This document shows, in pieces, positions 1 to 51,119 of a stretch of 64,000 nt of DNA; within the stretch, counting starts at the first letter, position 1; each line of letters starts with the position of its first letter. This DNA comes from an uncultured Actinomycetes bacterium (GTDB lineage Bacteria; Actinomycetota; Thermoleophilia; RBG-16-64-13), in contig CAWFJE010000002.1 in NCBI GenBank assembly GCA_963816155.1, positions 130,980 to 194,979 on the forward strand, written 5' to 3'. The notes under the pieces were generated by a model that saw only the letters and a program-made list of their open reading frames with translations, made no database searches and was not told the origin of the DNA. The translations under genes were made by a program, and so were the position numbers.

Positions 1-803
1 GTGGCAAGCAGCTTGAGCGCTAGATTGCCGGCCTCAGCGCCCAGGATGGTGACGAACAGGTCGAGGGTCGCCCTGGCGAGTTCGCAGGGCCGGCCGGCGT
101 CGCTCGCCGCCGCGAGGACAGCGGGGGTGGGATCTTCCGACGCGCTTAGCTCTTCGGCCAGCCAGGCCGGCTCGGGAAGGCCGGTGGTCTTCAGATACGC
201 GTACAGGTTGGGGATGCCCAGACCTCCAGAGCAGACCCGCTCGAAGCTCACATGGTCGAACCCCTGGGCGTTCATGTACGCGAGAAGGCCGACCTGCAGC
301 GGGCCCACCGGTGCGAAAGCCGCGTGGCTGCCTTCGCAGCCGTGTGCGTGATAGGCGCCACCGTCATACGTCAAGTACCCCTCCCCGAGACCGGTCCCGG
401 GCGCGAGCACCGCGATGCTGCCGCCGGGCACCCGCGTGCCCGCACTCAGGGTATGGAGGTCCTCTTCTTCGAGCACAGGGATCGCGCAACCGATCGCTCG
501 CATGTCGTTCAGCAGGGCCACTTCAGACCAACGGAAGAACGACTGCAGAGCGGCCCCGTCCACCACCCAGGAAAGGTTCGTGATACGCGCGCGTCGCTCT
601 ATCACCGGGCCGGCCACCCCAAAACACGCGCGGCCTGTATCGATGGGGAACTCCTCGAAGAACTCGCCGATCATGTCCTCGAGCGTCTCGTGCTGCGCGC
701 TTGGATAGGTCTTGCGAGCCAACGCGTCACGCGGGCCCCTCTCGCTGGAGAAGACCGCCAGGATCGTCTTCGTTCCGCCGATGTCACCAATGAGCACGTT
801 CAT
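1..803 (-). CDS. glk: glucokinase (Glk family, PF02685), C-terminus runs off the left window edge
   Basis: Reverse-strand translation gives MNVLIGDIGGTKTILAV...GVAGPV...LNDMRAIGCAIP...AVLAPGTGLGEGYL...HGCEGSHAAFAP...FDHVSFERVCSGGLGIPNLYAYL, collinear with E. coli Glk motifs (VGDVGGTNAR, GAGTGLGVAHL, GEGGHVDFAP, HVSAERVLSGPGLVNLY). The ATG at 803-801 follows the upstream divergent region. Absent from the ORF track because no stop codon lies within the window. Confidence 0.8.
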   Translation of the reverse strand, partial: MNVLIGDIGGTKTILAVFSSERGPRDALARKTYPSAQHETLEDMIGEFFEEFPIDTGRACFGVAGPVIERRARITNLSWVVDGAALQSFFRWSEVALLNDMRAIGCAIPVLEEEDLHTLSAGTRVPGGSIAVLAPGTGLGEGYLTYDGGAYHAHGCEGSHAAFAPVGPLQVGLLAYMNAQGFDHVSFERVCSGGLGIPNLYAYLKTTGLPEPAWLAEELSASEDPTPAVLAAASDAGRPCELARATLDLFVTILGAEAGNLALKLLA

Positions 804-942
804 CGTTATGCTTCCCAGGAGTGGATTGAGTCGACCATATCGATACCCTATCAGAACATGCCGGTCAACCTGTGACCTGAGAGAATACTCCTGCAGAGAC
901 GCGGGTTGTCGAACGGCAAGAGGGTGGCAAAGGAGACAGATC

Positions 943-2821: not shown

Positions 2822-3652
2822 CTAGGCCCTCCGAACCTCGATGTCGCCCAGGTTCTGATCCTTGACCGTGGCATCGATGGGACCGAGCTTCTGAGCAAGG
2901 TACCCGGGCTTCTCGATGAGCAGGGTGTAGGTGCCATCGGGGAGGTTCTTCAGCCAGAAGTCGCCATAGTTGTCGGTCTCGGTCGTGGTCTTCTCCCCCG
3001 TGGCCAGGTTGGTGGCGGTTACGGTGGCACCCATGGTGCACTCGTCGGCCTCCCGGTCATAGACGGCACCGGCGATCCACTTCTGGGGCAGGTTGAGGTA
3101 GTAGACCCGTGGGCGAGTGGGAAGCTCGGACTTGAGCAGTTCCGCCCCGGCCATGAGTTCCTTGATGGCGGGGTCGTCGTCATCCCCGAAGGTGAACGCT
3201 CCGGTGGGACAGGCGTCCGAGCATCGGGTCTCGGTCCAGCCCCGATCGAGGAGATGGGCGCAGAAGGTGCACTTCTGGGCGATGCCCAGGTCGTCGTTGA
3301 AATAGATTACGTTCTCGTAGGGGCAGGCCTCCATACAGAGCTGGTTGCCCCGGCACTTCTCGGGATCGATGATGACGATGCCGTCGGACCTGCGGTAGAT
3401 GGCGTTCACGTTGCAGGCGCTGATGCAGGGGGCGTCTTCGCAGTGTTGGCAGATGGAGTGGTGATAGGTGACCTGGACCTTGGGTACGGTGCCCCGCTCC
3501 AAGTTGATGACCTTGTTCCAGAACTGCCCCGTGTCCGGCTGCGGCTTGGCGATGGGAGACCAGTCGTTACCGACGTGCTCATCCTTGCAGGCCACCTGGC
3601 AATTGTGGCATCCGTTGCAGATCGAAAGGTCGATGATCATCACCTTGCCCAT
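2822..3652 (-). CDS. molybdopterin oxidoreductase beta (electron-transfer) subunit: multi [4Fe-4S] ferredoxin domain + C-terminal carboxypeptidase-regulatory-like beta-barrel domain; pyrogallol hydroxytransferase small-subunit-like
   Basis: MGKVMIIDLSICNGCHNCQVACKDEH...CQHCEDAPCISAC...CRGNQLCMEACPY...CTFCAHLLDRGWTETRCSDACPTG gives Cys clusters typical of DmsB-like subunits. The C-terminal TATNLATGEKTTTETDNYGDFWLKNLPDGTYTLLIEKPGY is a CarboxypepD_reg-like fold. The ATG at 3652-3650 overlaps the stop of the alpha gene (ATGA). Confidence 0.8.
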   Translation of the reverse strand: MGKVMIIDLSICNGCHNCQVACKDEHVGNDWSPIAKPQPDTGQFWNKVINLERGTVPKVQVTYHHSICQHCEDAPCISACNVNAIYRRSDGIVIIDPEKCRGNQLCMEACPYENVIYFNDDLGIAQKCTFCAHLLDRGWTETRCSDACPTGAFTFGDDDDPAIKELMAGAELLKSELPTRPRVYYLNLPQKWIAGAVYDREADECTMGATVTATNLATGEKTTTETDNYGDFWLKNLPDGTYTLLIEKPGYLAQKLGPIDATVKDQNLGDIEVRRA

Positions 3653-6252: not shown

Positions 6253-6380
6253 GCCGATCTCCCCCTTGTTCATTGGTCGAATCACTTGGAGTGGCCTGAG
6301 CCACGGTCAGCGTTCCTGGCGTCCACGTTACTGAGCGTACACTAAGGAATTGGGGCGGCTGTGTCAAACCGGCGCGGCCG

Positions 6381-7446
6381 TCAACCCACCGCCACCCGGC
6401 TCTGCATGCGACGCGCGAGCACCACGACCACGGGTATCAGTACCAGGGTCACGCCCACTGCGACCACGAGATCCACCCACACATCGGTGAGGCCCTTGCC
6501 CAGAACACCCACCTGCCAGATAGGATCGATCATCCAGAAGGTGGGGAAGATCTTGGCCACCCACTGGGGCCACTCGGGGAAGAGATAGAAGACCACCGGA
6601 GCAAGGATGAAGATGCCCGCCACCTTCGCCACAGCCATCATGGATACGGCGCTTCGGGCGGTCACGCCGAGAAGGACGCCGAGAATGGTCGCGAAGACGG
6701 AAGACACGAGAAGAACGATGATCATTGCCGGCGCGTTGCCCAGCGCCCCGTTCAGCGCCAGAGTGACCACCGACATGAGGAAGGCCAGGCTCACGCCCAG
6801 CAGCGCCTTCGCGGCGACCGCTTCGGACGCTTTGAGGGGGGTCACCAGCAATGCCGCCATCGTGCCCTTCTCCCCCTCCTCGATCAAACTCGCAGCCGGG
6901 ACGACAACACCCGCCATCACAAGCGCATACATCACCAGCATGGGGACGAGTCGCTCCGCGAGGGGAAGGGCGGCGGCATCGCCGAGAGTCACCAGCTTCA
7001 CGTCTACCGGGGCCTCTTGACCATCCAGGGCACGGACCGCATCCAGGGTGGTCACTTCAAGAATGATGCGATTCGACGCCAGGCTCTCTCCGCCGGCATA
7101 GATCTCCAACGGCGGCCTGCTCTCGGCGGCTATGGCGGCATCGAAATCCGAGCCGAGGACGACACCGACATCGATATCGTTGTTCTGGACGGCCCGTTTG
7201 AGGGCGGCAGCGTCGTCAAAGCGCGTCACCTCGATGTCCTCGGCAGTTGAGAGGGCGGCCGTGATCTGGGACTGCCCCGCATCGACGATCCCCAGGCGCG
7301 GTGTGGGCTCGAACAACGAGCCGAAGACCACCTGCACCAACAGTGTCATAGCGAAGGGCACGATGATCGCGGCCAGGAACAGGGGCGAGCGAGGTCCCAG
7401 CGAGTAGTCCTTGCGCAGCACTCTCCAGATTCGAGCAAGGCTCACA
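6381..7446 (-). CDS. ABC-2 family transporter permease
   Basis: Six-TM ABC-2 type permease with a large N-terminal extracytoplasmic loop. GTG start at 7446-7444 overlaps the upstream stop (GTGA). Confidence 0.7.
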
Positions 7447-8605
7447 GCGATGCGACCTTTCTCTTGAGCGTGAAGCGACCGAGCAGGTAGATGACCACCA
7501 ACCAGGCAAGTAGCGGTATGAAATAGATGGCCACGTCGTCCCATGACTCGCCGTAGGCCGTCACTCTGTGGAGCACCTCTACGAGGCCGTATGTGGGCAA
7601 CACCTTCACCAGCCAAGAGGAAGATCCGGGGAAAATGATCGCGACCGCCGGTATGGCCAGCGGCACGATGAGGAGCATCGTGTACAGCAGGGTGCCGATG
7701 AAATCCTTGGATGCAGCGCCGGTGATCATGGCGACGCCGGCGAACATCACGCCTCCCAGTATCATGGTGAGTAGCAGCAAGGGCCAGTTCGTGAGCGTGA
7801 ACGCCCCCATAGCCGCCAGGATGATGACTCCCTGGCCGGCGGCCATAAGCGCTCCGTAGGCCGTCTTGGCGCCCAGGACATCCCCCAGGCGAGCGGGAGT
7901 CGCGAGTATGGCGATCACCGTGCGCTGTCCGACCTCATTCGAGATCAGCACGGCGAGGGATAGGGTCTCGAGCATCAACACGAAGAAGGCGAAGAGGGCG
8001 CGAAACTGATCGCGCATCGACACCTGGGCGCCGGCTCGATCCTCGCCGAGGACCACCACGGTTTCCGCGGGAAGCGTGACCGGTAACTCATCGCCGCGCA
8101 GCCCATAGGCCAACTCTCGAACGAAACTGGTCATGGCCGCCCGCACGGCCGCTGCCGCCTCGGAGTCGGAGTAGATCACCACCGTGGTCTTCAGGCCTTC
8201 CGCGGTGTCGGCAGCGAAATCCGCGGGAAAGTCGACACCGATCTGCACCGAGACCCTGTCGGCGCCGTCCGGCTTCTCACCGCCGAACACGAAGGTCCCA
8301 TCCCCGGTCTTCCAGACATCGAGATCACCGGTCACCGCGGCCTTCAGGTCGTCGGTGGATGCGAATTCGACGAACGCCAAGCCCTCAGCCCCCGCGTACG
8401 CATCGAGCACCTGGTCCATGTCTTTCTGATGGATTCCAAGGACGAGCGTCTCGTCGACCGAACTGGGCATGATCCAGAAGACGGCCACGAGCACAACGAG
8501 CCCGAGGATGGATATCAGCATGATGAAGCGATTGCGGGAGAACTCCTGCAGGTCCTTGCGAAGGATGGCCGCCACGATGGCGGCGCGGGAAACCGGACGG
8601 CTCAA
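7442..8605 (-). CDS. ABC-2 family transporter permease
   Basis: 387-aa membrane protein (MSRPVSRAAIVAAILRKDLQEFSRNRFIMLISILGLVVL...). Its start overlaps the stop of the ATPase gene. Confidence 0.75.
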   Translation of the reverse strand: MSRPVSRAAIVAAILRKDLQEFSRNRFIMLISILGLVVLVAVFWIMPSSVDETLVLGIHQKDMDQVLDAYAGAEGLAFVEFASTDDLKAAVTGDLDVWKTGDGTFVFGGEKPDGADRVSVQIGVDFPADFAADTAEGLKTTVVIYSDSEAAAAVRAAMTSFVRELAYGLRGDELPVTLPAETVVVLGEDRAGAQVSMRDQFRALFAFFVLMLETLSLAVLISNEVGQRTVIAILATPARLGDVLGAKTAYGALMAAGQGVIILAAMGAFTLTNWPLLLLTMILGGVMFAGVAMITGAASKDFIGTLLYTMLLIVPLAIPAVAIIFPGSSSWLVKVLPTYGLVEVLHRVTAYGESWDDVAIYFIPLLAWLVVIYLLGRFTLKRKVASL

Positions 8606-17972: not shown

Positions 17973-18700
17973 TCAATGGACGATCCCGAGTTCTTGCGTC
18001 AGGGCACGGAGGTCCGCAACGAACTGCTTGTCCAGTATCACGACTCCACCGGCACCGGACTGTAGTTCCATGATCAGGCATGCAACATCATGTCCATGAT
18101 CCCTCAGTAGCCTCTCACAAGCGGGGAAATCGTTCTGGGGCAGGACTACCGTGTTTGCGGTCGCCTGTGCAGTAATGCCGGCGGAGTCCGGAAGTGGCGT
18201 CGGATGGTCGGCCGGGCCGGGAAACCTCTCAGGAGAGGGGTGCCCGGAGATCTGAAGGTCATCGATGAAACCGTGATACCCGCCTTCGAACCGTGCGATC
18301 TTGCTCTTGCCGGTATGACCTCTTGCGATTCGCACTGCACTGATGCACGCCTCGCTGGCAGAACACGTGAACTTGATCCTCTGGACGGAGGGCACGCGTT
18401 GGCATATCAACTCCGCCAGACGACGTTCGTACCGCGTGGGATTGCCAAAGGAAAAGCCTTTGGGAAGAGCTTCGAGAATCGCTTGGTTGATGGCCGGGTG
18501 ATTGTGGCCTAGAACATTGACGGTGAAGTTGCCTGGTGAGAGACATGATGGCCGAGCGAGAACTCGGAAAGGGAAGCCCATCTCAACCGTATGCTTGAAG
18601 TCTGCTCCATTGAAGACGTCCGGGTCCTGGGCGACGTTGGGGGGCGGGCCAAAGAGAAGCTTTCTGCCATGGGCGCCGTGATGTACGAGCGCCTCGCAGG
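17973..18700 (-). pseudogene. class-III (PLP-dependent) aminotransferase, truncated at both ends; pseudogene in a lower-GC segment
   Basis: ...NVLGHNHPAINQAILEAL...TCSASEACISAVRIARGHTGKSKIARFEGGYHG...ELGIVH then stop. The continuation LIFDEV...K(PLP) is missing. The frame opens directly after an in-frame TGA with no start codon until an internal M. GC is ~52-57% versus ~66% elsewhere. Confidence 0.6.
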
Positions 18701-26279: not shown

Positions 26280-27014
26280 CTACTCCTCTACCCGCACCTT
26301 TCGCGACCCCGGCAGGGGCGCCATCACTTTCCCGGCGGCGATCCTTCGCACCACGTCGGGGAGGAGCGTGTGTTCCACCGCGTGAACACGCCTGGCCAAT
26401 GACTCCGCCGTGTCCCCGTCCTCCACGCGCACCGGCTCCTGGACGATGATCGGTCCGGTATCGACGCCCTCGTCGATGTAGTGGACCGTCACCCCCGTCA
26501 CCTTGACGCCGTAGTCCAGGGCGTCTGTGATGGAGGTTGTCCCCGGAAACGCGGGCAGAAGCGCGGGATGCAGGTTGATGATCTTGCCCGGGAAGGCCTG
26601 CACGAACGTCGGCGACAGCACGCGCATGTAGCCGGCCAGCACCACCAGATCAGCCTCGCTCTCCCTCACGGCGTCGGCCAAGTGCTTGTCGTGCGCCTCG
26701 ACGCTGTCGTACGGCTCGTAGGGCAACACGGCTGTTGGGACTCCGTGGGTCCAGGCCTTCTCCAACACGGGAGCCCCGGGGACGTCCGTCACCAGCAGGG
26801 TGATGTCGAAGACCATAGCCCCCATGAGGGGAGGGTCGCCGGTGCAGCAGACCGGAGCCAGGACGGGCTTCCCTTCGGGATCGGCCAGGATACGCCTTTG
26901 CAGTTGCTCCACAAGGGCCAGGAAGTTGGAACCCGTGCCCGATGCGAGCACCACTATCTTGAAGAAGGTGCAGGGATCTCCGGGTGTCCAGGGTTCGTTG
27001 CTCGTGAAGCTCAC
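26280..27014 (-). CDS. purN: phosphoribosylglycinamide formyltransferase
   Basis: KIVVLASGTGSNFLALVE...INLHPALLPAFPG...VTVHYIDEGVDTGPII. GTG start overlaps the purM stop (GTGA). Contains a ~22-aa insertion (LADPEGKPVLAPVCCTGDPPLMGAM) relative to canonical PurN. The track's 629-aa ORF is this gene plus an out-of-frame extension over purM. Confidence 0.8.
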   Translation of the reverse strand: MSFTSNEPWTPGDPCTFFKIVVLASGTGSNFLALVEQLQRRILADPEGKPVLAPVCCTGDPPLMGAMVFDITLLVTDVPGAPVLEKAWTHGVPTAVLPYEPYDSVEAHDKHLADAVRESEADLVVLAGYMRVLSPTFVQAFPGKIINLHPALLPAFPGTTSITDALDYGVKVTGVTVHYIDEGVDTGPIIVQEPVRVEDGDTAESLARRVHAVEHTLLPDVVRRIAAGKVMAPLPGSRKVRVEE

Positions 27015-28225
27015 AGCACGCCCTCCAAGGTGACCTTTGCCGCTTCCGGCCCGGTCGCTCGCGTAGTTATCTCGCCCAGCCTGATCACGTGTTCGCCGGC
27101 ATCCGTCAGGCGGGTGGTCGCCTCCGCGACGGCTTCTTGCGGAAGCACCAGCACGTAGCCGATACCCATGTTGAAGGTGCGGAACATCTCCTGGTCGGAG
27201 ATGCCACCCAGAACCTGGAGCGCCCGGAACAGGGGCGGAATGATCCACTCCTCGAAGTCGAGACGCGCGGTGAGCCCGTCGGGGATCACCCGGGAAAGAT
27301 TGCCCGCCATGCCGCCACCGGTGATGTGGCTCATCGCCCGCACCGGCACCCCGGCGTCCAGCAGATCCAGCACGCTGCGCACGTAGATGCGCGTGGGTTC
27401 GAGCAGCACCTCGGCCACAGATGCGTCGCCGGCCGAGGTCCCGGCTGGCGAGGGAAGCGCGTCGCCCAAGGAGAGGCCGCTCACCTCCAGCACCTTGCGG
27501 ACCAGCGAGTAGCCGTTTGAATGCAGACCGCTGGAAGCCAGCCCAACGACGACGTCGCCCTCGGCGACAGTCGATCCGTCGATCAGTTTCCGCCTCTCGC
27601 CCAAGCCCACACAGAAGCCCGCCAGATCGAACTCGCCCGGAGCGTAGAGGCCGGGCATCTCCGCCATCTCGCCCCCGATGAGGGCGCAACCGGCCCGGCG
27701 GCAGCCCTCGGCCACCCCCGCGACGATCTGAACCATCTCCGCGGGAGTCAGGCGTCCCACGGCCACATAGTCGAGGAACAGGATGGGACGAGCCCCTATG
27801 GTCAACACGTCGTTCACCGACATGGCCACCAGGTCGATGCCCACCGTGTCGAGTCGCCCTGTCTCCTGAGCCAAGAGCAACTTGGTGCCCACGCCATCGG
27901 TGGCGGTCACCAGGACTGCATCTTCGAGACCCTGGGGCAACTGGAACAGCCCGGCGAACCCGCCCAGCGAGCCCAGGACGCCCGGAATGTACGTGCTCTC
28001 GACGTCCTCCCTGATCAATCTGACGGCCTCGTCTCCGGCTTCGATGTCGACCCCAGCCTCGCTGTAGGTGAGATGGGGCGCGCTGTGGACGATGCCGCCC
28101 GTCGCTGCTGGCGTTAGCCACCGGGAACCTCCGTGGATGTCGAGGGAGAGGGATCGCCTTCGAACACACCCAGCACGGCGTCCAGACTGGGCAGTTGCAC
28201 CGGGGTCAGGAAGACGATAACGCAC
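27011..28225 (-). CDS. purM: phosphoribosylformylglycinamidine cyclo-ligase (AIR synthetase); true start uncertain (probably near 28090, non-ATG)
   Basis: SEAGVDIEAGDEAVRLI...ATDGVGTKL...GGMAGNLSRV. The only in-frame canonical start is GTG at 28225, which adds a ~49-aa Arg-rich extension. That extension overlaps a plausible 2-TM small ORF in another frame. Confidence 0.8.
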   Translation of the reverse strand: MRYRLPDPGATAQSGRRAGCVRRRSLSLDIHGGSRWLTPAATGGIVHSAPHLTYSEAGVDIEAGDEAVRLIREDVESTYIPGVLGSLGGFAGLFQLPQGLEDAVLVTATDGVGTKLLLAQETGRLDTVGIDLVAMSVNDVLTIGARPILFLDYVAVGRLTPAEMVQIVAGVAEGCRRAGCALIGGEMAEMPGLYAPGEFDLAGFCVGLGERRKLIDGSTVAEGDVVVGLASSGLHSNGYSLVRKVLEVSGLSLGDALPSPAGTSAGDASVAEVLLEPTRIYVRSVLDLLDAGVPVRAMSHITGGGMAGNLSRVIPDGLTARLDFEEWIIPPLFRALQVLGGISDQEMFRTFNMGIGYVLVLPQEAVAEATTRLTDAGEHVIRLGEITTRATGPEAAKVTLEGVL

Positions 28226-28439: not shown

Positions 28440-28600
28440 CCCAGCTGCAAGCATGGTGCCTCTGCAGTCAGGCTCCGGATAACGGAGCCGAAAGGGAAGC
28501 CCGGTGAGAAGCCGGCACGGTCCCGCCACTGTAACCGAGGCTTCGCGAGGCGGTCGCACTCCGCCCCCCGAAGACCCCGGGAGCCAGATACCTGCTGTAG
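28440..28600 (+). promoter_or_regulatory. cobalamin (B12) riboswitch (RF00174-like) in the 5' leader of btuF
   Basis: GGTGCC...AAAGGGAAGCCCGGTGAGAAGCCGGCACGGTCCCGCCACTGTAACCG...GGGAGCCAGATACCTGC contains the B12-box and conserved core. Followed 150 nt later by the RBS AAAGGAG of btuF. Confidence 0.85.
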
Positions 28601-28755
28601 AGGAGGAGCAGTCGCTTTCCGTGGAGAGAGCGCACTCCGCTCCGATATCTCGGAGCGCCACTCGGTTCGACCATGTTGGTCCGGCCGGGGAGTAGCCAAC
28701 CTGCTCTCCACCATCTTGCGGGTCGTGACCATAGGCTGAACCGAAAGGAGTCCGC

Positions 28756-29853
28756 ATGAACGGACACCCACAGCCCCATCGCCAACAGATGGGGCCCGTA
28801 GCGTCGTATCCCCGACGCCACTCCGCGTTACTACCATTGCTCCTGGTGGCCGCACTGGCCGTGCTGCTCGCCGGGGCCCTCTTCCTGACCGGGTGCGGGT
28901 CGGACGAAGGCACCGACGACACGGCGACGACGGCCGCCCCCGCAACGTCGAGCACCGCCGCCGGCGCCGATCAGACCACCTCCTCGGCCCCCACGGAGAC
29001 CACTGTTGCTCAGCCTGAGGCAGCCACCTTCCCGGTGACGGTCACCGACGACAAGGGCACCAGCGTGACCATCTCGGCCGAGCCCATGCGCATCGTCTCC
29101 ACGGCCCCGGCCAACACCGAGACGCTGTTCGCCCTCGGTCTCGCCGAGCGCATCGTGGGCGTGACCTCGCTCGACGACTACCCGCCTGAGGCCGCCGACA
29201 TCGAGAAGGTGGGCGACTTCACGGTCAACACCGAGGCCGTCATGGCCCTGAGCCCCGACCTCGTGGTGGGCTACGCCGGCAACGAGGAGGCCCTCGCTCC
29301 GGTGACCTCTGCCGGTGCAGCCGTCCTCATCCTCGATCCCGTGAACCTGGAGCAGATCTACGCCAACATCAAACTGGTCGGCACGGCGACAGGCGCCCAG
29401 GCCAAGGCCGCTGAACTGGTCGAGGGACTGAAGACGGAGATCAAGGCGATCACCGACGCTACGGCCGGAGCCGCGTCGTCGCCGAAGGTCTTCTACGCGC
29501 TGGACAACACGCTGTGGACGGCCGGTCCGGGCTCGTTCGTGGATGAACTGCTTACCATGGTCAACGCCACCAATGTCGGCTCCATGGGAGGCGCAGACAG
29601 CGCCGCCGTGCAGCCCTACTACCAGTTCGCTCCCGAGCAGCTGGTGGCCGCCGATCCCGACATCATCTTGCTGCCCAACACCGCCTATGCCAGCGTGGAT
29701 GAGTTCGTCTCCGACCCCCGTTTCGCCGACCTCAGAGCCGTCAAAGAGGGCAATGTGGTCCTCATCGACGACGTGATCATCACCCGGCCGGGACCGCGCA
29801 TCGGGCAGGGGCTCCTTGCTCTGGCCACGGCCGTGCACCCGGAGGCCTTCTAG
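28756..29853 (+). CDS. btuF: corrinoid/iron-siderophore type ABC transporter substrate-binding lipoprotein (BtuF-like, class III PBP)
   Basis: Lipobox LFLTGCGS followed by a Thr/Ala-rich linker. ...MRIVSTAPANTETLFALGLAERIVGVTS...LSPDLVVGYAG... is typical of the BtuF/FhuD fold. Confidence 0.8.
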   Translation: MNGHPQPHRQQMGPVASYPRRHSALLPLLLVAALAVLLAGALFLTGCGSDEGTDDTATTAAPATSSTAAGADQTTSSAPTETTVAQPEAATFPVTVTDDKGTSVTISAEPMRIVSTAPANTETLFALGLAERIVGVTSLDDYPPEAADIEKVGDFTVNTEAVMALSPDLVVGYAGNEEALAPVTSAGAAVLILDPVNLEQIYANIKLVGTATGAQAKAAELVEGLKTEIKAITDATAGAASSPKVFYALDNTLWTAGPGSFVDELLTMVNATNVGSMGGADSAAVQPYYQFAPEQLVAADPDIILLPNTAYASVDEFVSDPRFADLRAVKEGNVVLIDDVIITRPGPRIGQGLLALATAVHPEAF

Positions 29854-29927
29854 CGACGGCGAGGTATCCGAATCGGTCATGAACGACCGGTCACATACAG
29901 CACCGGTCCTCCGCGCGCGGAGGACCG

Positions 29928-30998
29928 GTGAGCGGGGGCGCGATCCGCTGGGGACCGCGCATGAGCGCCGGCGCCGACCGCCGCAGAATCTACCGTTTGG
30001 TGATGCTCGTCCTGGCGGCGGGCCTTATCGCCGCCGTGGTGACGGCAGCGGTGGTGGGTGCGGCCGGGATGTCCGTCGGCGAGGCGCTCCGGGGCCTCTT
30101 CGCCCTTATCGGTTCGGGCCCCGACGCCCAGGGTGATTTTCCCGCCTGGGCCCCACGGCTCCTCTGGAGCCTACGCCTACCTCGCATAGCATTGGCCCTC
30201 ATCGCAGGTGCCGCTCTCTCCACAGCGGGCGCCTCGTTCCAGGGCGTCTTCCGCAACCCGCTGGCCGAACCCTACCTGCTGGGCGTGTCGGCCGGCGCCG
30301 CGCTGGGTGCCACCATAGCGATCGTCTGGAGGCCTTTGGGTGCCGGCATCTATGGGATACCGGTCCTGGCCTTCGTGGGCGGGGCCGCGGCCGCCTTCCT
30401 CGTGTACCGTCTGGCCACGTTCTCCGGGGTCACCGGTACCGCCTCCCTCCTGCTCTCCGGCGTGGCCATTGGCTCCACCCTCACCGCCGTCACGTCCTTC
30501 ATGATGGTGGCCACGGAGAGAGACCTACACACGGTCATAGTCTGGCTCATGGGCGGGCTGACGACGGCCACGTGGACCAAGGTCTACATCACTCTGCCCG
30601 TGGTCGCCGGCGGCTTCGTATACATGATGCTGATGTCGCGGCGCATGAACCTCCTCCTCATGGGCGAGGAGCGGGCGCGCGAGCTCGGTGTGGACAGCCA
30701 GCGCACCCGCCGCAACCTGATGATCGTGGCCTCGCTCGTCACCGCGGCGGCGGTGGCTTTCACGGGGCTGATAGGCTTCGTGGGGCTGATGGTGCCGCAC
30801 ATCATGCGCCTGCTGGTGGGTCCCGATCACCGCCGCCTCCTCCCCGCCACGGCCCTCTTCGGGGCCCTGCTCCTGCTACTGGCCGACACGGTCGCGCGGA
30901 CGATCCTTGCCCCGGCCGAGATACCGGTGGGCATCATCACCGCAGCCGTCGGGGGCCCCTTCTTCCTGTATCTGCTCCGCATCCGCAGAGGAGTCTGA
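29928..30998 (+). CDS. btuC: FecCD-family ABC permease (BtuC-like)
   Basis: 10-TM FecCD pattern (...LLGVSAGAALGA...; GGPFFLYLL). GGAGGA RBS before GTG 29928; alternative ATG at 29961. Confidence 0.8.
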   Translation: MSGGAIRWGPRMSAGADRRRIYRLVMLVLAAGLIAAVVTAAVVGAAGMSVGEALRGLFALIGSGPDAQGDFPAWAPRLLWSLRLPRIALALIAGAALSTAGASFQGVFRNPLAEPYLLGVSAGAALGATIAIVWRPLGAGIYGIPVLAFVGGAAAAFLVYRLATFSGVTGTASLLLSGVAIGSTLTAVTSFMMVATERDLHTVIVWLMGGLTTATWTKVYITLPVVAGGFVYMMLMSRRMNLLLMGEERARELGVDSQRTRRNLMIVASLVTAAAVAFTGLIGFVGLMVPHIMRLLVGPDHRRLLPATALFGALLLLLADTVARTILAPAEIPVGIITAAVGGPFFLYLLRIRRGV

Positions 30999-40393: not shown

Positions 40394-43033
40394 CTACTGG
40401 CCTCCGCGCCGATCGGCCAGGTCGGCGAAGCGCGTGTAGTCCTGGATGAAGGCCAACTTGCAATCCCCGATGGGACCGTTCCTCTGCTTGCCCACGATGA
40501 TCTCGGCCGTGCCCTTATCAGGACTGTCGCGGTTGTAGACCTCGTCGCGATAGATGAACATCACCAAGTCCGCATCCTGCTCGATCGCTCCGGAGTTGTG
40601 AGTCACAAGCCCATCGGCCAACCAGCAGGAGGGTCCGGGCACCGTGAGATCGAAGACTTCCTCTTCTCCGTCCGGCACCACTTCCACGACGCTATCCCAG
40701 AAGAGATCGCTGGTCGCCTGATGTCGGAGCACCTCGTCATCGAGGAGTTCTGCGTACTCGAGCACGGTCGCCCGGGACGGTGAGAAGCCAAAGTGAGCAC
40801 CTCCCCCATACGAGGTGCCTCGCATGCTCGCCATCGCCCGCTGTGAGACGCCCTGCCGAGCCATGCTTGCCCGTGCGCGACTGAAGACATTGCAGGGCAG
40901 GGTATCCACATTGGTGTTCGAGCTGCCACCCTCGAGGGAGGCTCTAAGCGCAGCGGCGCCTTTGGCGCACGGCCCAAAGCCCCCCACTTTGTCCAAGAAC
41001 GACAACAGAGACTCTCGACCGGACACGTTGACCGTGAACCACGTGGAGTCGCCCTGCCTCGCGGTACGGATGCGCGCCACGACGCCCAAACGAAGCAACA
41101 GCGCGGCCACGTCGTCGGCCAACCCTCGACTGGCCGTAGAGAAGTGTACGCCCGCCGATCCACGCGCACCCTCGGGGCGCGGCGTGATGGTCCCGTCCGT
41201 GGCCCACAGATGGCGCAGAAGAATGCCGATCTGCCGATCATCCAGACAGAATGCCGTCGCGGGCAGACGCTTCTCCCGTGAGCGCTGGCCGAAGATGCCC
41301 AACTCACGCAGCCAGTGATTCACGCCTTGAGGGTGCCAACGATCACCATTTCCCGATAGCAGCAGCTGGAACCAGTTCCCCCGCCCGCGGTACCAGGTCA
41401 CCTTCAGGCCAAACTCCTGCTCAGCGACCGCCGCCACAAGTTCACCGTTCTCGACGCAACCAGTGGTGTAGCGCATCGGCTGCCCCGAGAGGTAACTTCC
41501 ATCGCCAATCAGGTGGCCGAGAAGCGCCACTCTACCATCGGACCACCGCTCGGTACTTGCCGGCTGCGGAAGCCGCCGCGCGAGCGCCACTCTATCGCCG
41601 GCGACGAGATCACCGATGGTGGTCCAGCCGTCGCCCCCCATGACTCGATGCTCGGCAGTCGCCCGCAGTCGCCGGCCACTCGCCGTGCGCAGCACGAACA
41701 CCGAGCGACGCCCCACCGACCACACTCGGTCGCTCCTGGCTTCGGTGAGACGCCCCTCTGCTGTGACCGCCACCACGTAGGGCTGCTCCCCCACCAACTC
41801 CCCGATGGGCACACGACGTCCGTCCGCCAGGCAGACCAGTGTGTCTCCCGTGACACACTCCCTAAGGTCGGACAACACCGGCCGGTTGCCGGCCCGCTGC
41901 TCCACCTGCCGGGAAAGCTGCGAGAGGGCCACGACCGGCACCTCCAACTCACGCGCCAGGATCTTCAAACCCCGGGAGATACGCGATATCTCCTGCTGGC
42001 GGTTCTCCACCCCCATGTCGCCCACCATCAGCTGCAGGTAGTCGACAATGATCAGACTGAGGTTCTTCTCCCTCGCCTTGAGGCGTCTGGCCTTGGCCCG
42101 GATCTCCATCAGATTGAGGGAGGCACTGTCGTCGATGAAGATCGGTGCTGCGTGCAACGGCGTGCAGGCCGCGGCCAGCTTGCTCCATTCCTGAGGCTGC
42201 AAGAGCCCCCTGTGTACGCGCCAACTGTTCACCCGAGCCTCGGCGCACATCATGCGGCGCACCACTTCCATCTTGGACATCTCCAGGCTGAAGATGGCCA
42301 CCCCTTTGCCCTGGTCCACGCTCACGTTTCGGGCGATATTGAGCACCAAAGCCGTCTTGCCCATGGAAGGACGGGCTGCCAAAATGACGAGGTTGGCGGG
42401 CTGAAAGCCGCTGATGATGCCATCGAGATCACGGAAGCCGGTCTGGCAGCCCACGGTGTGGTGCCCCTCGGTCATGGTGCGCTCGAGCTCGGCGAACTCC
42501 GCGCCGATCAGGTCGCTGATGGACTCGAACTCACCGACCACCCGATCCTCAGAGATGTCGAACACCATCTGCTCGGCCTTGTCGATGAGATCCACGGGCG
42601 TCTGCTCGCGCCTGTAGCCCATCTCCGTTATCTCGCCGCCTACGCGAATGAGAGAACGTAGCAGATAGTTCTCCCGCACGATCTCCGCGTAGTGACGGGC
42701 GTTGGTGGCCGCCGGGACCGAACTCGCCAGACTATGGACGAACGCCCGCCCACCGACCATCTCCAGACTGGCCCTATTGGCCAGCTCTTCGCTCACAGTG
42801 ATGGGATCGACAGGCTCTCCGCGCGAGAACAGATCCTCGATGACCTCGAAGATGCGCTGGTGCGACTGCCGATAGAAGTGCTTGGGCCGGATGATCTCAC
42901 TCACGCCCGGGATGACATTGGGCGTGAGTATGCTGGCGCCAAGCACCGATATCTCGGCGTCGACGTTCTGCGGGACTACCTGCTCTCCCCCGGGCGCCCC
43001 AAGCGGGCCGCCCCTGCTCGCCGGTGCTTCCAT
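40394..43033 (-). CDS. dnaB: replicative DNA helicase DnaB interrupted by a 421-aa intein (879-aa precursor; 458-aa spliced helicase)
   Basis: DnaB N-domain and RecA-like core (GFQPANLVILAARPSMGKTALVLN, Walker B IIVDYLQLM, SQLSRQVEQR...SDLRE | intein | SGAIEQDADLVMFIYRD). Confidence 0.9.
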   Translation of the reverse strand: MEAPASRGGPLGAPGGEQVVPQNVDAEISVLGASILTPNVIPGVSEIIRPKHFYRQSHQRIFEVIEDLFSRGEPVDPITVSEELANRASLEMVGGRAFVHSLASSVPAATNARHYAEIVRENYLLRSLIRVGGEITEMGYRREQTPVDLIDKAEQMVFDISEDRVVGEFESISDLIGAEFAELERTMTEGHHTVGCQTGFRDLDGIISGFQPANLVILAARPSMGKTALVLNIARNVSVDQGKGVAIFSLEMSKMEVVRRMMCAEARVNSWRVHRGLLQPQEWSKLAAACTPLHAAPIFIDDSASLNLMEIRAKARRLKAREKNLSLIIVDYLQLMVGDMGVENRQQEISRISRGLKILARELEVPVVALSQLSRQVEQRAGNRPVLSDLRECVTGDTLVCLADGRRVPIGELVGEQPYVVAVTAEGRLTEARSDRVWSVGRRSVFVLRTASGRRLRATAEHRVMGGDGWTTIGDLVAGDRVALARRLPQPASTERWSDGRVALLGHLIGDGSYLSGQPMRYTTGCVENGELVAAVAEQEFGLKVTWYRGRGNWFQLLLSGNGDRWHPQGVNHWLRELGIFGQRSREKRLPATAFCLDDRQIGILLRHLWATDGTITPRPEGARGSAGVHFSTASRGLADDVAALLLRLGVVARIRTARQGDSTWFTVNVSGRESLLSFLDKVGGFGPCAKGAAALRASLEGGSSNTNVDTLPCNVFSRARASMARQGVSQRAMASMRGTSYGGGAHFGFSPSRATVLEYAELLDDEVLRHQATSDLFWDSVVEVVPDGEEEVFDLTVPGPSCWLADGLVTHNSGAIEQDADLVMFIYRDEVYNRDSPDKGTAEIIVGKQRNGPIGDCKLAFIQDYTRFADLADRRGGQ
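40595..41857 (-). mobile_element. intein (Hint splicing domain + LAGLIDADG homing endonuclease) in the dnaB P-loop/RecA core, between ...SDLRE and SGAIEQDAD
   Basis: Starts CVTGDTLV (block A Cys; codon TGT at 41857-41855) and ends ...GLVTHN (codon AAC at 40597-40595) followed by +1 Ser. Two LAGLIDADG-like motifs (LLGHLIGDGSY, LRHLWATDGTI). The flanking exteins re-join into a canonical DnaB sequence. Confidence 0.85.
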
Positions 43034-45959: not shown

Positions 45960-47069
45960 TCAGCCTTCCTGCTCCGGGCGGCCGTCGGCCTCCGCCTCAC
46001 GCGCAACTGTGACCGCTGCAGCCTGGGGTGCAGTCGGCGGCACTCCGGCCGGCGTCCCCCATCCTTCGGGATAGGGCTGATATCTGGCAGCGTCACGTTC
46101 CCGGCGGCGACGGGTGACCGACCTCCAGATCCGGTACACGATGTAGGCGATGATGCCCAGCACGATAGCCACCGGCACCAGCACACCCAATCCACGCACG
46201 ATCGCGTTCACAGCGTTCACCAGATTGCGCACGGCGTCCTTCAGCGCCCCCACGAAACCCCATTCGGTCGTGGTAGCGATCACAGTCCCCGTCTCATACA
46301 TGGTGAGCGTCAGAGTCGAGAAGTTGGTGTGCTCATCGAGATAGCGAAGGCGGCCCTTGAGTTCTTCAAGTTGCTGCTGCGCACCGGTGAGCACCTGCTG
46401 CACCTGCAGGATATCGTCGACCGTCTTCGCCTTGGCAAGGAGAAGCAGGAGGGCCTTCACCTGCGCTTCGGAGTTGGCGATGCGGGCCTCCAGGTCCACG
46501 TACTCCTCTGTGACGTCCTGAGTCTGGATCTGCTGGTTCTTGACTTCGCCCAACTTGCCGGCATCGGCCAGCGCCCGGGAGAAGGAGGTGGCCGGAACGC
46601 GGATGGCGATGTTACCGCTCTTCATACCTTCCTCTTCGCCACCGGCCCAGGCTCCCGAACTGACGATGTAGCCGCCGTAGCGGTCGGCCAGTAATAGAGC
46701 CTGATTGAACGTGCTCTCGAAGGCACCGCTCTCGACCTCGATCTCCATCTGCGCGTCGCTGATGACCTTCTGGCCGGTCGTACCCTGCAACGCGACAAGG
46801 GCACCGCCCTGCACATCCGCGTCGCCTGTGTACTTGGCCGCGCTCTCGTCCGAGGCGAACGAGCCGTCGCCGAGAGGCGGAGAGCCCGCCCAATCTTCCG
46901 GCATAGCTGCGGCAGCCGTGGTCTCGGTGGCGGCCGCGATCGTAGTGGTGACCTCAGAGTCGTTGGCGGAGCAGCCCACCATCCCCAGCAGTCCCGCCAG
47001 CGTCAGCAGGACCAAGACGACCACCCCCGTGGATGCTGCTCTATGAGTCCCCGCCCTCATGCCCCTCAT
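45960..47069 (-). CDS. DUF4349 domain lipoprotein
   Basis: Lipobox LLGMVGCS; coiled-coil region IANSEAQVKALLLLLAKAKTVDDILQVQQVLTGAQQQLEELKGRL; C-terminal TM. Typical DUF4349 architecture. Confidence 0.6.
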   Translation of the reverse strand: MRGMRAGTHRAASTGVVVLVLLTLAGLLGMVGCSANDSEVTTTIAAATETTAAAAMPEDWAGSPPLGDGSFASDESAAKYTGDADVQGGALVALQGTTGQKVISDAQMEIEVESGAFESTFNQALLLADRYGGYIVSSGAWAGGEEEGMKSGNIAIRVPATSFSRALADAGKLGEVKNQQIQTQDVTEEYVDLEARIANSEAQVKALLLLLAKAKTVDDILQVQQVLTGAQQQLEELKGRLRYLDEHTNFSTLTLTMYETGTVIATTTEWGFVGALKDAVRNLVNAVNAIVRGLGVLVPVAIVLGIIAYIVYRIWRSVTRRRRERDAARYQPYPEGWGTPAGVPPTAPQAAAVTVAREAEADGRPEQEG

Positions 47070-47181: not shown

Positions 47182-47742
47182 TCAGTCGACGAGGCTGTCG
47201 ATCGTGGCCGACAACTGATCGGCGGTGACAGCACCCGGGATCGTTTCCACGATGCGCCCCTCGCTGTCGATGACGACCGTGGTGGGCAGCACATCGACGC
47301 CATAGGCGCGGAAGACCTCATCGACGTCGAGCATGACCGGGAAGATGAAGCCCCCGGCTTTCATGAGAGCACTGATGGCTTCCTCGGAATCCTGCACCGC
47401 GAGGCCCAGAAGCCCCGCTCTTTCGTTGTTCTCTCGATAGAACCTATCGAGTTCGGGCGCTTCCGCCCTGCAGCCGCTTCACCAACTGGCAATGAAGGCG
47501 AGTACCAACGGCTTTCCCCGGTATTCGCTCAGAGATACGTCCACCCCATCGAGCGTCACCCCGCTGAAATCGGCAGCTTGGGCCGAGTCGGCTCCGGTGG
47601 TCACCGTGGTCCCCGCGCCGCCATCGGAAGACGAAGAACCACAACCGACGGCCCCGAGCACCAGGGCCAGGAGTAGAAGGGTGAACCCGGCGGACCACAT
47701 CACGTGGTGCGCGACGAGCCGATGTTCACGCCCGCGGTTCAC
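47182..47742 (-). CDS. TlpA/ResA-like thioredoxin-fold thiol:disulfide oxidoreductase lipoprotein, candidate selenoprotein (in-frame TGA at 47481-47479 at the first active-site Cys position: W-U-S-G-C)
   Basis: Track ORFs 47479..47742 and 47182..47397 are in the same frame and are separated only by a TGA. Read-through gives ...GKPLVLAFIASW[TGA]SGCRAEAPELDRFYRENNERAGLLGLAVQDSEEAISALMKAGGFIFPVMLDVDEVFRAYGVDVLPTTVVIDSEGRIVETIPGAVTADQL, a complete redoxin fold. The UGA aligns with the first Cys of the canonical WCxxC motif. Lipobox LVLGAVGCGS. Confidence 0.65.
47433..47478 (-). promoter_or_regulatory. SECIS-like element: two hairpins 10-46 nt downstream of the in-frame UGA (GGGCG-GAAG-CGCCC; CUCGAUAG-GUU-CUAUCGAG)
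   Basis: On the mRNA: UGA AGCGGCUGCA GGGCGGAAGCGCCC GAA CUCGAUAGGUUCUAUCGAG. The second is a perfect 8-bp stem with a GUU apical loop, inside the window where bacterial SECIS elements occur. Confidence 0.45.
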
Positions 47743-48605
47743 TTGCCACCCTTGCCGGTTCGGGCCGCCGTCTTGGAAGACTTAGCCGTCTTGGAGGACT
47801 TGGCCGTCTTGCCCGCTCCGACCCCGGCGACGGTCACGGGCGTGGGAGTCCCCGCGGTCGGCACCGGGCGCAGGCGACCATGGGTCTCGAAGTACCACAT
47901 GCCCCCGATACCGATGAAGAAGAGGGCCACGCTGATCCACTGTTGCTGGGTCAAGCCCCAGGCCACCGCGTCGTTGGTGCGCACGAACTCCACAAGGAAG
48001 CGTTCGACTCCGGCCAGCAGAAGATACGCGAACATCAACGGTCCCTCGCGCTTGAAGCGCGGGCTTATCACCCAAACCAGGAGGGCGAAGATCACAAGGG
48101 AGGCGGCTATCTCGTAGAGTTGGGTGGGATGCACGGCGACAGTGGTCGGCGGCAGGCCTTTGGGGAACGACATCCCCCAGGGAAGATCGGTGGGGACCCC
48201 ATAGTCGTCGCCGCGCAGGAAGCAGCCCATTCGGCCCACGGCGTACCCGATCGCCACGGCCGGCGCGCCCGAATCCATGACGGCAGCCAGTCTCTCTTTG
48301 GAGAGCTTCGTGACGATGACCACCGCCACTATGGCGCCGAAGAGACCTCCGAACCACACGAGACCTCCCCCGCTGAGGAGGTTACCCGGCCATTCGTCGG
48401 GGTGGATGATGAGGTAGTGGATCTTGGCCCCGAGCAGGCCGCCGATGACCGCGGCTATCAAGAGACCGTAGATGAAGTCGGGCCGCACCCCACGTTGCTT
48501 GAACTGCCAATGAGCGACGAAACCCGCGCTTATGAACGCCAAAGCCATCATCACGCCGAAGGAGTGCATCGTGAAGGGGCCTATGCTGAACAGTTCCGGA
48601 TACAT
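47739..48605 (-). CDS. lgt: prolipoprotein diacylglyceryl transferase with Lys/Thr/Ala-rich repetitive C-terminal tail
   Basis: MYPELFSIGPFTMHSFGVMMALAFI...GRMGCFLRGDDYG (Lgt signature). Tail KTAKSSKTAKSSKTAARTGKGGK is encoded by a tandem DNA repeat. The stop overlaps the redoxin start. Confidence 0.9.
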   Translation of the reverse strand: MYPELFSIGPFTMHSFGVMMALAFISAGFVAHWQFKQRGVRPDFIYGLLIAAVIGGLLGAKIHYLIIHPDEWPGNLLSGGGLVWFGGLFGAIVAVVIVTKLSKERLAAVMDSGAPAVAIGYAVGRMGCFLRGDDYGVPTDLPWGMSFPKGLPPTTVAVHPTQLYEIAASLVIFALLVWVISPRFKREGPLMFAYLLLAGVERFLVEFVRTNDAVAWGLTQQQWISVALFFIGIGGMWYFETHGRLRPVPTAGTPTPVTVAGVGAGKTAKSSKTAKSSKTAARTGKGGK

Positions 48606-49455: not shown

Positions 49456-49779
49456 CTAGGCCAGCCCGAACTCTGCTTCGTAGTCTTTCTGGCTACGGGC
49501 GCCGATGAGCTGGGCCTTCTGCTCTCCGCCCTCGAACATCATCACCGTGGGGATGCTCATGATGCCGAAGCGGGCGGCGAGCTCCTGGTTCTCGTCCACG
49601 TTCACCTTCACAACGCTCACCTTGTCGCCGTGATCCGCGGCCAGCTTCTCCAACACGGGGGCCACCATACGGCAAGGCCCGCACCACGGAGCCCAAAAAT
49701 CTGCCACCACAGGGACGGTGGCCACAGAGACGATGTCGTCGAAACCCTTGGTGTCTACTTCCTGCACTTCCCCGCTCAT
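49456..49779 (-). CDS. trxA: thioredoxin
   Basis: VVADFWAPWCGPCRMVAPVLEKLA...IMSIPTVMMF. ATG 49779 with AAGGAGAG RBS. Confidence 0.9.
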   Translation of the reverse strand: MSGEVQEVDTKGFDDIVSVATVPVVADFWAPWCGPCRMVAPVLEKLAADHGDKVSVVKVNVDENQELAARFGIMSIPTVMMFEGGEQKAQLIGARSQKDYEAEFGLA

Positions 49780-50091
49780 TCTCGCTCTCCTTGTCTCGGA
49801 TGGCCCCGCCAACCTGCTGCCGCTATTCTATCCGGTACGTGAATCGACCGGCCCATGCACCGATCCGTTCGTTGCTGGCGACACGGCCGACCCCGCTCTC
49901 ATATACCCAGTAGGGTATCTTAACACACGGTCGCCAGCGCTGCCACTTCGAAGCCGAAGCACGACCCATGGACCACGTTCCGCCTGGCTATTGTTACCCT
50001 CAACCGCAATCCGCTAACCTAGGATGCTGCTGAACAATGACGCTTCGCCGCATGGATGCGCCGGCCACGGACGAGACAAGGGGGCGATCTT

Positions 50092-50748: not shown

Positions 50749-50777
50749 CCCGGCGCTCGAGCTCCGTCTGAGGGGCG

Positions 50778-51119
50778 GTGCCGGCTCAGAGCGACAAGGC
50801 TGTCTTCACCTTCGCCACCACCCATGAGGCCATGGCGGCGGAGGATATCCTGCGGGGGGAAGGTGTGCCCTTGGAGGTCGTTCCGCCGCCGCGCGGACTG
50901 AGCGCCGGCTGCGGACTCGCCCTTCGGGTCTCTATGGAGGACGCGCCCAGGGCGCACGCCACGCTTGCTCGGGAGGGCGCGGCATTCCAGGCGCTTCACC
51001 GTCTCGACGCGGACCGGAGAGTGCGCGAAAGACTCGTCTGGGATGCTGATGCTAAAGTGTGGCACCCGCAAGCGGGCACAGACCTGAACGATACGGAGGG
51101 ACGTAGCCATCTCACCTGA
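50778..51119 (+). CDS. DUF3343 domain protein (putative Se/S carrier protein-like family)
   Basis: AVFTFATTHEAMAAEDILRGEGVPLEVVPPPRGLSAGCGLALRV: conserved Cys-Gly in the DUF3343 context. Confidence 0.6.
   Translation: MPAQSDKAVFTFATTHEAMAAEDILRGEGVPLEVVPPPRGLSAGCGLALRVSMEDAPRAHATLAREGAAFQALHRLDADRRVRERLVWDADAKVWHPQAGTDLNDTEGRSHLT

Follow-up and report, generated by a model that had tools for sequence, protein, structure and literature searches.

ResA of B. subtilis, TlpA of Bradyrhizobium and Etrx of S. pneumoniae are extracytoplasmic, membrane-anchored thiol-disulfide reductases that are fed by CcdA or DsbD. They use cysteine in the active site, in CEPC, CVPC and similar motifs. Here we describe a gene of the same fold in a 64-kb stretch of DNA, called the window below, out of a 520,439-bp NCBI/ENA contig of an uncultured Actinomycetes bacterium. 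In the predicted protein the active-site motif is U-S-G-C, where U stands for an in-frame UGA codon. On the evidence of the orthologous genes and of a conserved RNA hairpin, we consider it very likely that this UGA is recoded as selenocysteine (Sec) with the help of a selenocysteine insertion sequence (SECIS) located downstream in the coding region.

Thioredoxin-fold redoxins with a UxxC motif, including TlpA-like proteins, are among the earliest and most common predicted selenoproteins of bacteria (PMC13188914; Zhang et al.). This selenoprotein type is already known, and the gene in the window adds a predicted member to it. It shares with the published UxxC proteins the fold, the Pfam families, the use of Sec for the first Cys of a CxxC motif and the existence of Cys homologues. 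In both cases a bacterial SECIS (bSECIS) is placed directly downstream in the coding region, and both are predicted from sequence only. Deltaproteobacteria, marine metagenomes and a few metagenome-assembled genomes (MAGs) account for most of the published examples, whereas the clade described here belongs to uncultured Actinomycetota/Thermoleophilia. The specific traits of this clade are a fixed position beside lgt, a lipoprotein signal and a near-invariant candidate SECIS, which has a long spacing of 35 nt and is preceded by a second hairpin that covaries.

A redoxin gene with an internal TGA

The gene and the sites within it that matter for the following analysis are:

47182..47742, minus strand: complete candidate selenoprotein gene, with a single internal TGA and with matches to Pfam families and to the ResA structure
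47479..47481, minus strand: predicted Sec-UGA, which opens the U-S-G-C redox motif, with TGA in 59 orthologous loci
47470..47472, minus strand: TGC, the resolving Cys of the UxxC motif, invariant in 14 aligned proteins and in 36 of 36 coding sequences of the Sec form
47641..47700, minus strand: putative signal peptide and lipobox (…LVLGAVG-C; Cys codon 47643..47641), by sequence inspection

From 47742 to 47182 the minus strand forms one reading frame, and its sole internal stop is the TGA at 47481..47479, within the peptide G-K-P-L-V-L-A-F-I-A-S-W-[TGA]-S-G-C-R-A-E-A-P-E-L-D-R-F-Y-R-E. A preliminary description of this locus had reported two open reading frames (ORFs) in the same frame that are parted only by this TGA. 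This is borne out, as the ORFs 47479..47742 and 47182..47397 share one frame and are linked by 27 codons without a stop. The start of the gene is either the GTG at 47742, used in the public gene call, or the ATG at 47700, and the true stop is the TGA at 47184..47182, giving a product of about 172-186 amino acids (aa). The GTG start overlaps the stop codon of lgt as GTGA, and the redoxin is predicted to be coupled to lgt in translation.

In the public gene calls the gene appears as two nameless ORFs of 87 aa and 71 aa, and it is split likewise in every relative examined. For the C-terminal ORF, the GTG at 47397 could act as the start. If the locus is read as two genes, the codon of the resolving Cys would fall in no ORF. 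A sequencing error had been named beforehand as one way in which the selenoprotein assignment could fail. However, in the Logan assembly of run ERR15459710, which is independent, the gene is again split at the TGA into 87 aa and 71 aa, and an assembly error peculiar to the window record is therefore excluded.

To assign the family, the TGA was read as C and the resulting 172-aa protein was compared with Pfam, NCBIfam and solved structures. It matches AhpC-TSA (PF00578) with 79.7 bits (cut-off 26) and Redoxin (PF08534) with 74.5 bits (cut-off 26.6), and further PF13098 with 40.2 bits (cut-off 27) and PF00085 with 33.3 bits (cut-off 23.5). Among the thioredoxin families, Thioredoxin_2, Thioredoxin_8 and Thioredoxin are matched above their cut-offs. 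The closest solved structures are ResA of B. subtilis (E 1e-17) and several thioredoxin-family lipoproteins of the 4hqs/2yp6 type, with TlpA further off (3e-7). Like ResA, TlpA and Etrx, the protein has an N-terminal membrane anchor, and both the active-site motif and the cis-Pro loop align: W-U-S-G-C is placed on W-C-E-P-C of ResA, and L-P-T-T on its cis-Pro segment. In the protein alignment W73, C74, C77 and P139 are invariant or nearly so. Neither half of the split gene is a thioredoxin fold by itself.

The protein does not reach the NCBIfam model of ResA sensu stricto (NF002854; 88.8 bits against a cut-off of 170). It does not reach NF041054 either, the model of a ResA-like selenoprotein with a WAxxUGC motif (37.6 bits, cut-off 300), and has W-U-S-G-C in place of that motif. 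Besides the score below the NCBIfam ResA cut-off, the window gene is unlike the ResA, TlpA and Etrx systems in that genes for ResB, ResC or cytochrome c are not nearby and CcdA is not adjacent. A hydrophobic segment followed by L/V-x-G/A/S-C is kept in the otherwise divergent N-termini of the orthologues, and the mature protein is predicted to be extracytoplasmic and lipid-anchored. Judged by the Pfam and structure matches and by the lipobox seen on inspection, the gene is a predicted ResA/TlpA-like thioredoxin-fold lipoprotein, which is the product that the preliminary description had expected from reading through the TGA.

A protein search returned two types of match, full-length Cys homologues (WCGPC, WCGSC, WCGTC) and seven truncated proteins, and no annotated selenoprotein was among these database matches. 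The truncated proteins have 94-101 aa and all stop exactly at ...F-M-A-S/T-W. Their contigs carry a TGA at that codon in seven out of seven cases. Five of the contigs are long enough to follow the gene, and there the frame runs for about 98-99 more codons to a normal stop, encoding the rest of the thioredoxin fold; the other two end before a stop is reached.

In a scan of GTDB, with one genome per species, 23 close homologues were found, 20 of them with TGA and three with TGC or TGT. The hosts are MAGs of uncultured Actinomycetes, Actinomycetota or Thermoleophilia, save one 2.7-kb contig binned as Lentisphaerae. In this contig (L019, JAAYZO010000473.1, 2,673 bp) the segment from the TGA to the hairpin is identical to that of an Actinomycetes locus (L018), and the contig is probably mis-binned. 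With the further loci contributed by a metagenome scan, TGA is present at the Sec codon in 59 loci, corresponding to 49 distinct 78-nt sequences. They come from uncultured Actinomycetota/Thermoleophilia MAGs and from metagenomes, and their habitats are sediments, wetlands and anaerobic reactors. The sister clade, with the motif CGPC, and all more distant homologues have TGC or TGT at this codon. Below, the two kinds of gene are called Sec forms and Cys forms.

In a neighbour-joining tree the Sec forms make up one clade, which is sister to the CGPC clade found at the same chromosomal position. One Cys form, L099 (CGSC), is nested within the Sec clade. This gene (Ga0154634_1128, ~1488) and the proteins P0005 and P0009 have Cys motifs without Pro (CGSC, CGTC) and look like revertants from Sec to Cys. 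The preliminary description had placed the TGA exactly on the first Cys of a WCxxC motif and had proposed to inspect this codon in orthologues. The placement is confirmed by the homologues with TGC or TGT at that very codon, and the inspection gives a TGA shared by 59 loci, Cys in the sister clade and a downstream frame that stays open. Chance is a most unlikely origin, as the same TGA, the open frame after it and the hairpin described in the next section recur in 59 independent loci.

Selection was estimated from the ratio of nonsynonymous to synonymous divergence (dN/dS), using pairwise Nei-Gojobori comparisons among 36 distinct full-length coding sequences of the Sec form. The ratio is 0.10 upstream of the UGA (dS 1.25) and 0.34 downstream of the SECIS region (dS 1.27), i.e. 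both regions are under purifying selection at a near-saturated synonymous divergence. The resolving Cys, an FPVM segment, the cis-Pro and several Gly and Asp positions are invariant or nearly so. Under a reading as two genes or as a pseudogene, no ORF would contain the resolving Cys or the 26 other conserved codons. The pattern of substitution argues that the part downstream of the UGA is translated.

Two hairpins downstream of the UGA

Two stem-loops follow the UGA within the coding region. They are numbered by their distance from the UGA:

47455..47468, minus strand: hairpin 1, a 5-bp stem GGGCG/CGCCC with the loop GAAG, 10 nt after the UGA, supported by covariation
47433..47451, minus strand: hairpin 2, the core SECIS candidate, an 8-bp stem CUCGAUAG/CUAUCGAG with the apical loop GUU at 47443..47441, supported by covariation and by the freezing of its codons

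The SECIS of E. coli fdhF is a stem-loop in the coding region just 3' of the Sec-UGA that exposes a G and a U in its loop, and hairpin 2 is like it in these respects. Read from MG1655, the fdhF element has the apex GCA-GGUC-UGC, located 18 nt after the UGA. The apex is AGGUUCU here and AGGUCU in fdhF, and the A-GGU motif is common to both. However, fdhF has a single long and imperfect hairpin, beginning immediately behind the UGA and with its loop at 18 nt, whereas the window has a perfect 8-bp hairpin with the loop at 35 nt, preceded by the separate 5-bp hairpin.

According to the bSECIS consensus (PMC13188914), the loop has 3-9 nt, the upper stem 4-16 bp, the distance from the UGA to the loop is 16-37 nt and the minimum free energy (MFE) is <= -7.5 kcal/mol. 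In addition, at least one G occupies the first two positions of the loop, mostly G followed by G or U (PMC13188914). Hairpin 2 begins 27 nt after the UGA and agrees with the consensus in every respect: the loop GUU has 3 nt, the stem 8 bp, the loop starts with G then U, and it lies 35 nt after the UGA. Its MFE is between -8.4 (stem alone) and -9.5 kcal/mol. No Rfam family was matched, neither at the gathering threshold nor at E <= 10 on the 141-nt region. The preliminary description had pointed to a perfect 8-bp hairpin with a GUU loop at 47433-47451, at the place where bacterial SECIS elements sit; the hairpin is present, it covaries and it fits the bSECIS model.

Covariation was examined in an alignment of 49 sequences. 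Hairpin 2 is paired in 99.5% of the cells. Three of its pairs never vary, two vary by G.U wobble only, and two show compensatory replacements: L029 and L119 have U-A in place of C-G, and L119 also has G-C in place of A-U. The top pair is open in two sequences, where a 5-nt loop AGUUC results, with the G still within the first two positions. If the 3' partner is slid by 1-3 columns, the pairing falls to 29-50%. The covariation score of hairpin 2 was reached by none of 500 shuffles, although the sequences are related by descent, so that shuffle-based statistics of this kind overstate their independence.

The hairpin is also visible in the choice of codons. Its codons encode E-L-D-R-F-Y-R, at positions +9 to +15 after Sec, and their synonymous entropy is 0.00 bits at six of them and 0.18 bits at the last; elsewhere in the gene, degenerate codons are at about 0.3-2.2 bits. 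The seven used are GAA, CTC, GAT, AGG, TTC, TAT and CGA, four of which (GAT, AGG, TAT and CGA) are unusual for this GC-rich gene. In the hairpin region dS is down to 0.33. As a null model, the peptide was kept and the synonymous codons were resampled from the gene family's own usage. Under this model 60% of the cells of hairpin 2 are paired, compared with the 99.5% observed, and 0.5% of the sequences are fully paired, compared with 96% observed.

The Cys forms of the close clade provide a further comparison. The six orthologues (L020, L025, L030, L099, L109 and L111) encode nearly the same peptide, E-(I/L)-D-x-F-Y, with other codons. Their 19-nt segment corresponding to hairpin 2 folds at 0 to -0.4 kcal/mol, versus -6.5 to -8.4 kcal/mol in every Sec form. 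The hairpin is lost also in L099, the Cys revertant nested inside the Sec clade. Because the Cys forms, L099 included, fail to fold, hairpin 2 occurs only where the TGA occurs.

Hairpin 1 had been noticed in the preliminary description as well, as a 5-bp hairpin GGGCG-GAAG-CGCCC ten nt after the UGA, and it is found at 47468..47455. In the 49 sequences it is paired in 89% of the cells (50% under the null model), and the fraction of fully paired sequences is 59% (2% under the null model). Its pair 17-30 joins the second position of a variable codon with the third position of a Pro/Ser codon; it is GC in 32 sequences, AU in 11, GU in three and another combination in three. From this covariation hairpin 1 is probably real, but less certain than hairpin 2. 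Within the recoding element it probably plays an accessory or spacer role, and SelB would bind hairpin 2 rather than hairpin 1. A long-range helix between columns 12-15 and 67-70, proposed by RNAalifold and by the single-sequence MFE structure, was dropped as it shows no compensatory changes.

A stronger version, which we put forward tentatively and regard as rather doubtful, is a SECIS made of two hairpins. In it the function would depend on hairpin 1, which would act as a structured spacer or as a roadblock at the entrance of the ribosome and would enable the GUU hairpin to act at the unusually long distance of 35 nt. If so, the product would be an exported, lipid-anchored selenoprotein encoded at a fixed locus, and possibly a core selenoprotein that helps to maintain the Sec trait in an uncultured lineage of Actinomycetota.

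Readings of the UGA

Several observations, beside the shared descent of the aligned sequences, weigh against Sec insertion. Neither the 64-kb window nor 1.8 Mb of flanking sequence from the relatives yielded selA, selB, selD or a tRNA-Sec. The genome spans several Mb, and for this reason their absence from 64 kb is uninformative. Hairpin 1 raises three further points: its complementarity is partly due to the peptide R-A-E-A-P being encoded in GC-rich codons, four of its five pairs are retained in the Cys form L109, and it nearly fits the SECIS model itself (5 bp, loop GAAG, 15 nt from the UGA). With respect to the physiological role, no ResB/ResC-type or cytochrome c maturation genes are located in the conserved neighbourhood, and no CcdA gene lies next to the redoxin or elsewhere in the 64-kb window; one may be present in another part of the genome.

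The search for the Sec machinery included tblastn with SelA, SelB, SelD and FdhF of E. coli against the window and 167 loci (1.8 Mb), which found nothing relevant. The matches were one weak GTPase and two FdhF-like genes in Chloroflexota loci with Cys-form redoxins. ARAGORN detected nothing but tRNA-Lys in the window, and the loci of 24 relatives were free of tRNA genes. No selenium genes were detected by Pfam among the remaining ORFs of the window. An AIRS-domain protein at 27011..28225 was considered as SelD and rejected, as it is PurM (412.7 bits).

We infer that the inserted residue is Sec. The comparative evidence shows recoding aided by a hairpin and not which amino acid is inserted; together with the failure to find the Sec machinery in the window and the 1.8 Mb of relatives' flanks, this leaves room for a read-through that is directed by the hairpin and inserts another residue. 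It could be Cys, delivered by a variant tRNA and a SelB-like factor, and the result would be an ordinary CxxC redoxin. We hold this to be very unlikely. The UGA takes the place of the nucleophilic Cys in a redox motif, the position at which Sec and Cys canonically replace one another, and the hairpin agrees with the SelB-type bSECIS model. Further, the Cys revertants use TGC or TGT and lose the hairpin, which would make a costly system for Cys by UGA pointless. To our knowledge, recoding of UGA as Cys has been reported only rarely. It is extremely improbable that the gene is dead or split, be it by a nonsense mutation, by a sequencing error or because it encodes two small proteins of 87 aa and 71 aa, as the two unnamed ORFs of the public annotation and the possible GTG start at 47397 might suggest. 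The TGA is kept in 49 distinct sequences, while the flanking synonymous sites are near saturation (dS ~1.25). The 27-codon stretch from the TGA to the GTG, which encodes the resolving Cys, is conserved at the protein level, the downstream dN/dS is 0.34, neither half is a thioredoxin fold, and the independent assembly has the same TGA.

The two remaining readings concern the code and the role of the hairpins. A reassignment of UGA to Trp has reportedly been described in 2026 for Eggerthellaceae (Actinomycetota), which would favour UGA being read as Trp or Gly throughout the genome, with a hairpin that is unrelated to decoding. In the window, which has a GC content of 64%, TGA is however the commonest stop codon, ending 12 of 23 domain-validated genes, among them lgt and the selenoprotein gene itself. 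A scan of the window for coding ORFs split by a TGA returned the selenoprotein gene only. The same scan of the relatives' flanks returned only adjacent in-frame genes, with filters so strict that even the target gene was missed. As TGA ends 12 of the 23 genes, and as the window contains no other credible ORF interrupted by TGA, a genome-wide reassignment is excluded and its probability next to nil. Trp or Gly in place of the catalytic Cys would also inactivate the enzyme, and the strict coupling of TGA and hairpin would be left unexplained. Alternatively, the hairpins might mainly regulate, by pausing or attenuation, with a truncated N-terminal lipopeptide as the chief product and the full-length Sec protein made only with selenium. 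Sec insertion in bacteria is generally inefficient and some truncated product is expected; from its spacing, hairpin 1 would be at the mRNA entrance of the ribosome when the UGA is in the A site. However, the truncated product has no fold or conserved function, the part upstream of the domain is not conserved, and the last two thirds of the domain, downstream of the UGA, are under selection, which shows that the functional product is the full-length protein. We regard regulation as the main role of the hairpins as highly improbable, and such an effect would be a side effect of Sec insertion, not an alternative to it.

If the UGA is recoded as Sec, the UGA at 47481..47479 would be decoded by Sec-tRNA(Sec) delivered by SelB, and SelB would be recruited by the hairpin at 47451..47433, with its GUU loop 35 nt downstream. 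The hairpin at 47468..47455 probably serves as a structured spacer, bringing the loop bound by SelB effectively closer to the ribosome. At the final TGA of the gene, which has no such element, termination would be normal.

In that case split ORFs have hidden from annotation an envelope redox enzyme that is conserved in a widespread lineage of uncultured actinobacteria, and a corrected annotation would mark the TGA-form genomes as probable users of Sec. The family also offers a clean natural experiment on the bSECIS, with 49 sequences, a near-invariant hairpin, few compensatory changes, Cys revertants without the hairpin and a second covarying helix. It could serve to test the spacing rules of SelB recruitment and the advantage of Sec in an extracytoplasmic reductant. 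Nothing known about selenoproteins is overturned.

Neighbouring genes and proposed function

The neighbours of the redoxin gene that enter the functional proposal are:

47739..48605, minus strand: lgt, prolipoprotein diacylglyceryl transferase, 68-93% identical to PF01790 (LGT) proteins at the same syntenic position in L001-L003
48848..49075, minus strand: zinc ribbon of the FmdB family (TIGR02605, CxxC…CxxC), two genes upstream of the redoxin
49456..49827, minus strand: thioredoxin, Cys form WCGxC, Pfam Thioredoxin 98.6 bits, conserved synteny
50772..51119, plus strand: Se_S_carrier/DUF3343, in the slot of variable content that separates the metallo-hydrolase from UPF0182 and is at 6923..7539, minus strand, in L001

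The gene order is shared by genomes with the Sec form and with the Cys form. It runs UPF0182 / (Se_S_carrier ± DsrE) / metallo-hydrolase // thioredoxin - FmdB zinc ribbon - lgt - redoxin, followed by (CcdA ± DUF1786) - DUF4349 - rpsF-ssb-rpsR-rplI-dnaB. The lgt gene is directly upstream of the redoxin in all long loci and ends in an ordinary TGA; its family was assigned via the proteins of the relatives. The lgt product would lipidate the redoxin. The DUF4349 protein just downstream of the redoxin (45960..47069, minus strand) has a signal peptide and a lipobox too (…LLGMVGC-SAND). The order of lgt followed by two putative lipoprotein genes is kept in most relatives.

The link of ResA, TlpA and Etrx to CcdA (DsbD_TM) is matched by an adjacent CcdA gene in most orthologous loci, CcdA being found directly after the redoxin in about 60% of the long ones. 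By analogy with these systems, the most economical reading is a path from thioredoxin via CcdA to the lipid-anchored Sec-redoxin, which would bring reducing power outside the membrane. After export the product would be held by its lipid anchor on the outside of the membrane, with Sec as the N-terminal nucleophilic residue of the active site (W-U-S-G-C). In its catalytic cycle the mature enzyme most likely alternates between a selenolate/thiol and a selenenylsulfide state. Both the electron path and the substrates are what we infer from the gene order and from these relatives: electrons probably come from the cytoplasmic thioredoxin through a CcdA-type membrane transporter, and the enzyme probably reduces disulfides or oxidised residues in proteins of the cell envelope. 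The neighbouring thioredoxin, which would be the electron source of the pathway, has the Cys form in all 36 copies examined.

The FmdB family is known to have selenoprotein forms with a UxxU motif (PMC13188914). In the 32 copies examined, from the window and related loci, all four positions of the zinc ribbon are Cys.

The DUF3343 gene had been mentioned in the preliminary description as a putative Se/S carrier-like neighbour about 3 kb away. The gene is indeed nearby, but as evidence on selenium it is weak in either direction: it belongs to a variable cassette, and of 30 syntenic loci only about 12 have it, including a single Cys-form locus; we therefore give it little weight. In several relatives a DsrE-like gene lies beside DUF3343. 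The window has no DsrE gene, and many relatives have neither of the two.

Other parts of the window contain features that are separate from the redoxin. A gene at 712..2424 (plus strand) joins a C-glycoside deglycosidase beta-subunit domain to a xylose-isomerase-like TIM barrel. Next to it, at 2822..6285 (minus strand), a molybdopterin oxidoreductase, with an N-terminal domain like that of pyrogallol hydroxytransferase, is located beside a 4Fe-4S/CarboxypepD_reg subunit. Neither region contains an in-frame TGA, and together they may form a cluster for the catabolism of aromatic compounds or C-glycosides. A 202-aa ORF at 17973..18581 (minus strand) matches only positions 36-225 of the 403-position model of class-III aminotransferases and may be a truncated or frameshifted gene. 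A cobalamin riboswitch at 28448..28613 (plus strand; Rfam RF00174, 63.8 bits) is directly upstream of genes for a periplasmic binding protein and a FecCD permease (28756..30998, plus strand). The riboswitch and the transporter presumably form a corrinoid uptake system under B12 control that has been inserted into the cluster of purine biosynthesis genes. Finally, DnaB (40394..43033, minus strand) contains an intein with a LAGLIDADG homing endonuclease, with Intein_splicing at residues 401-813 and LAGLIDADG_3 at residues 605-684.

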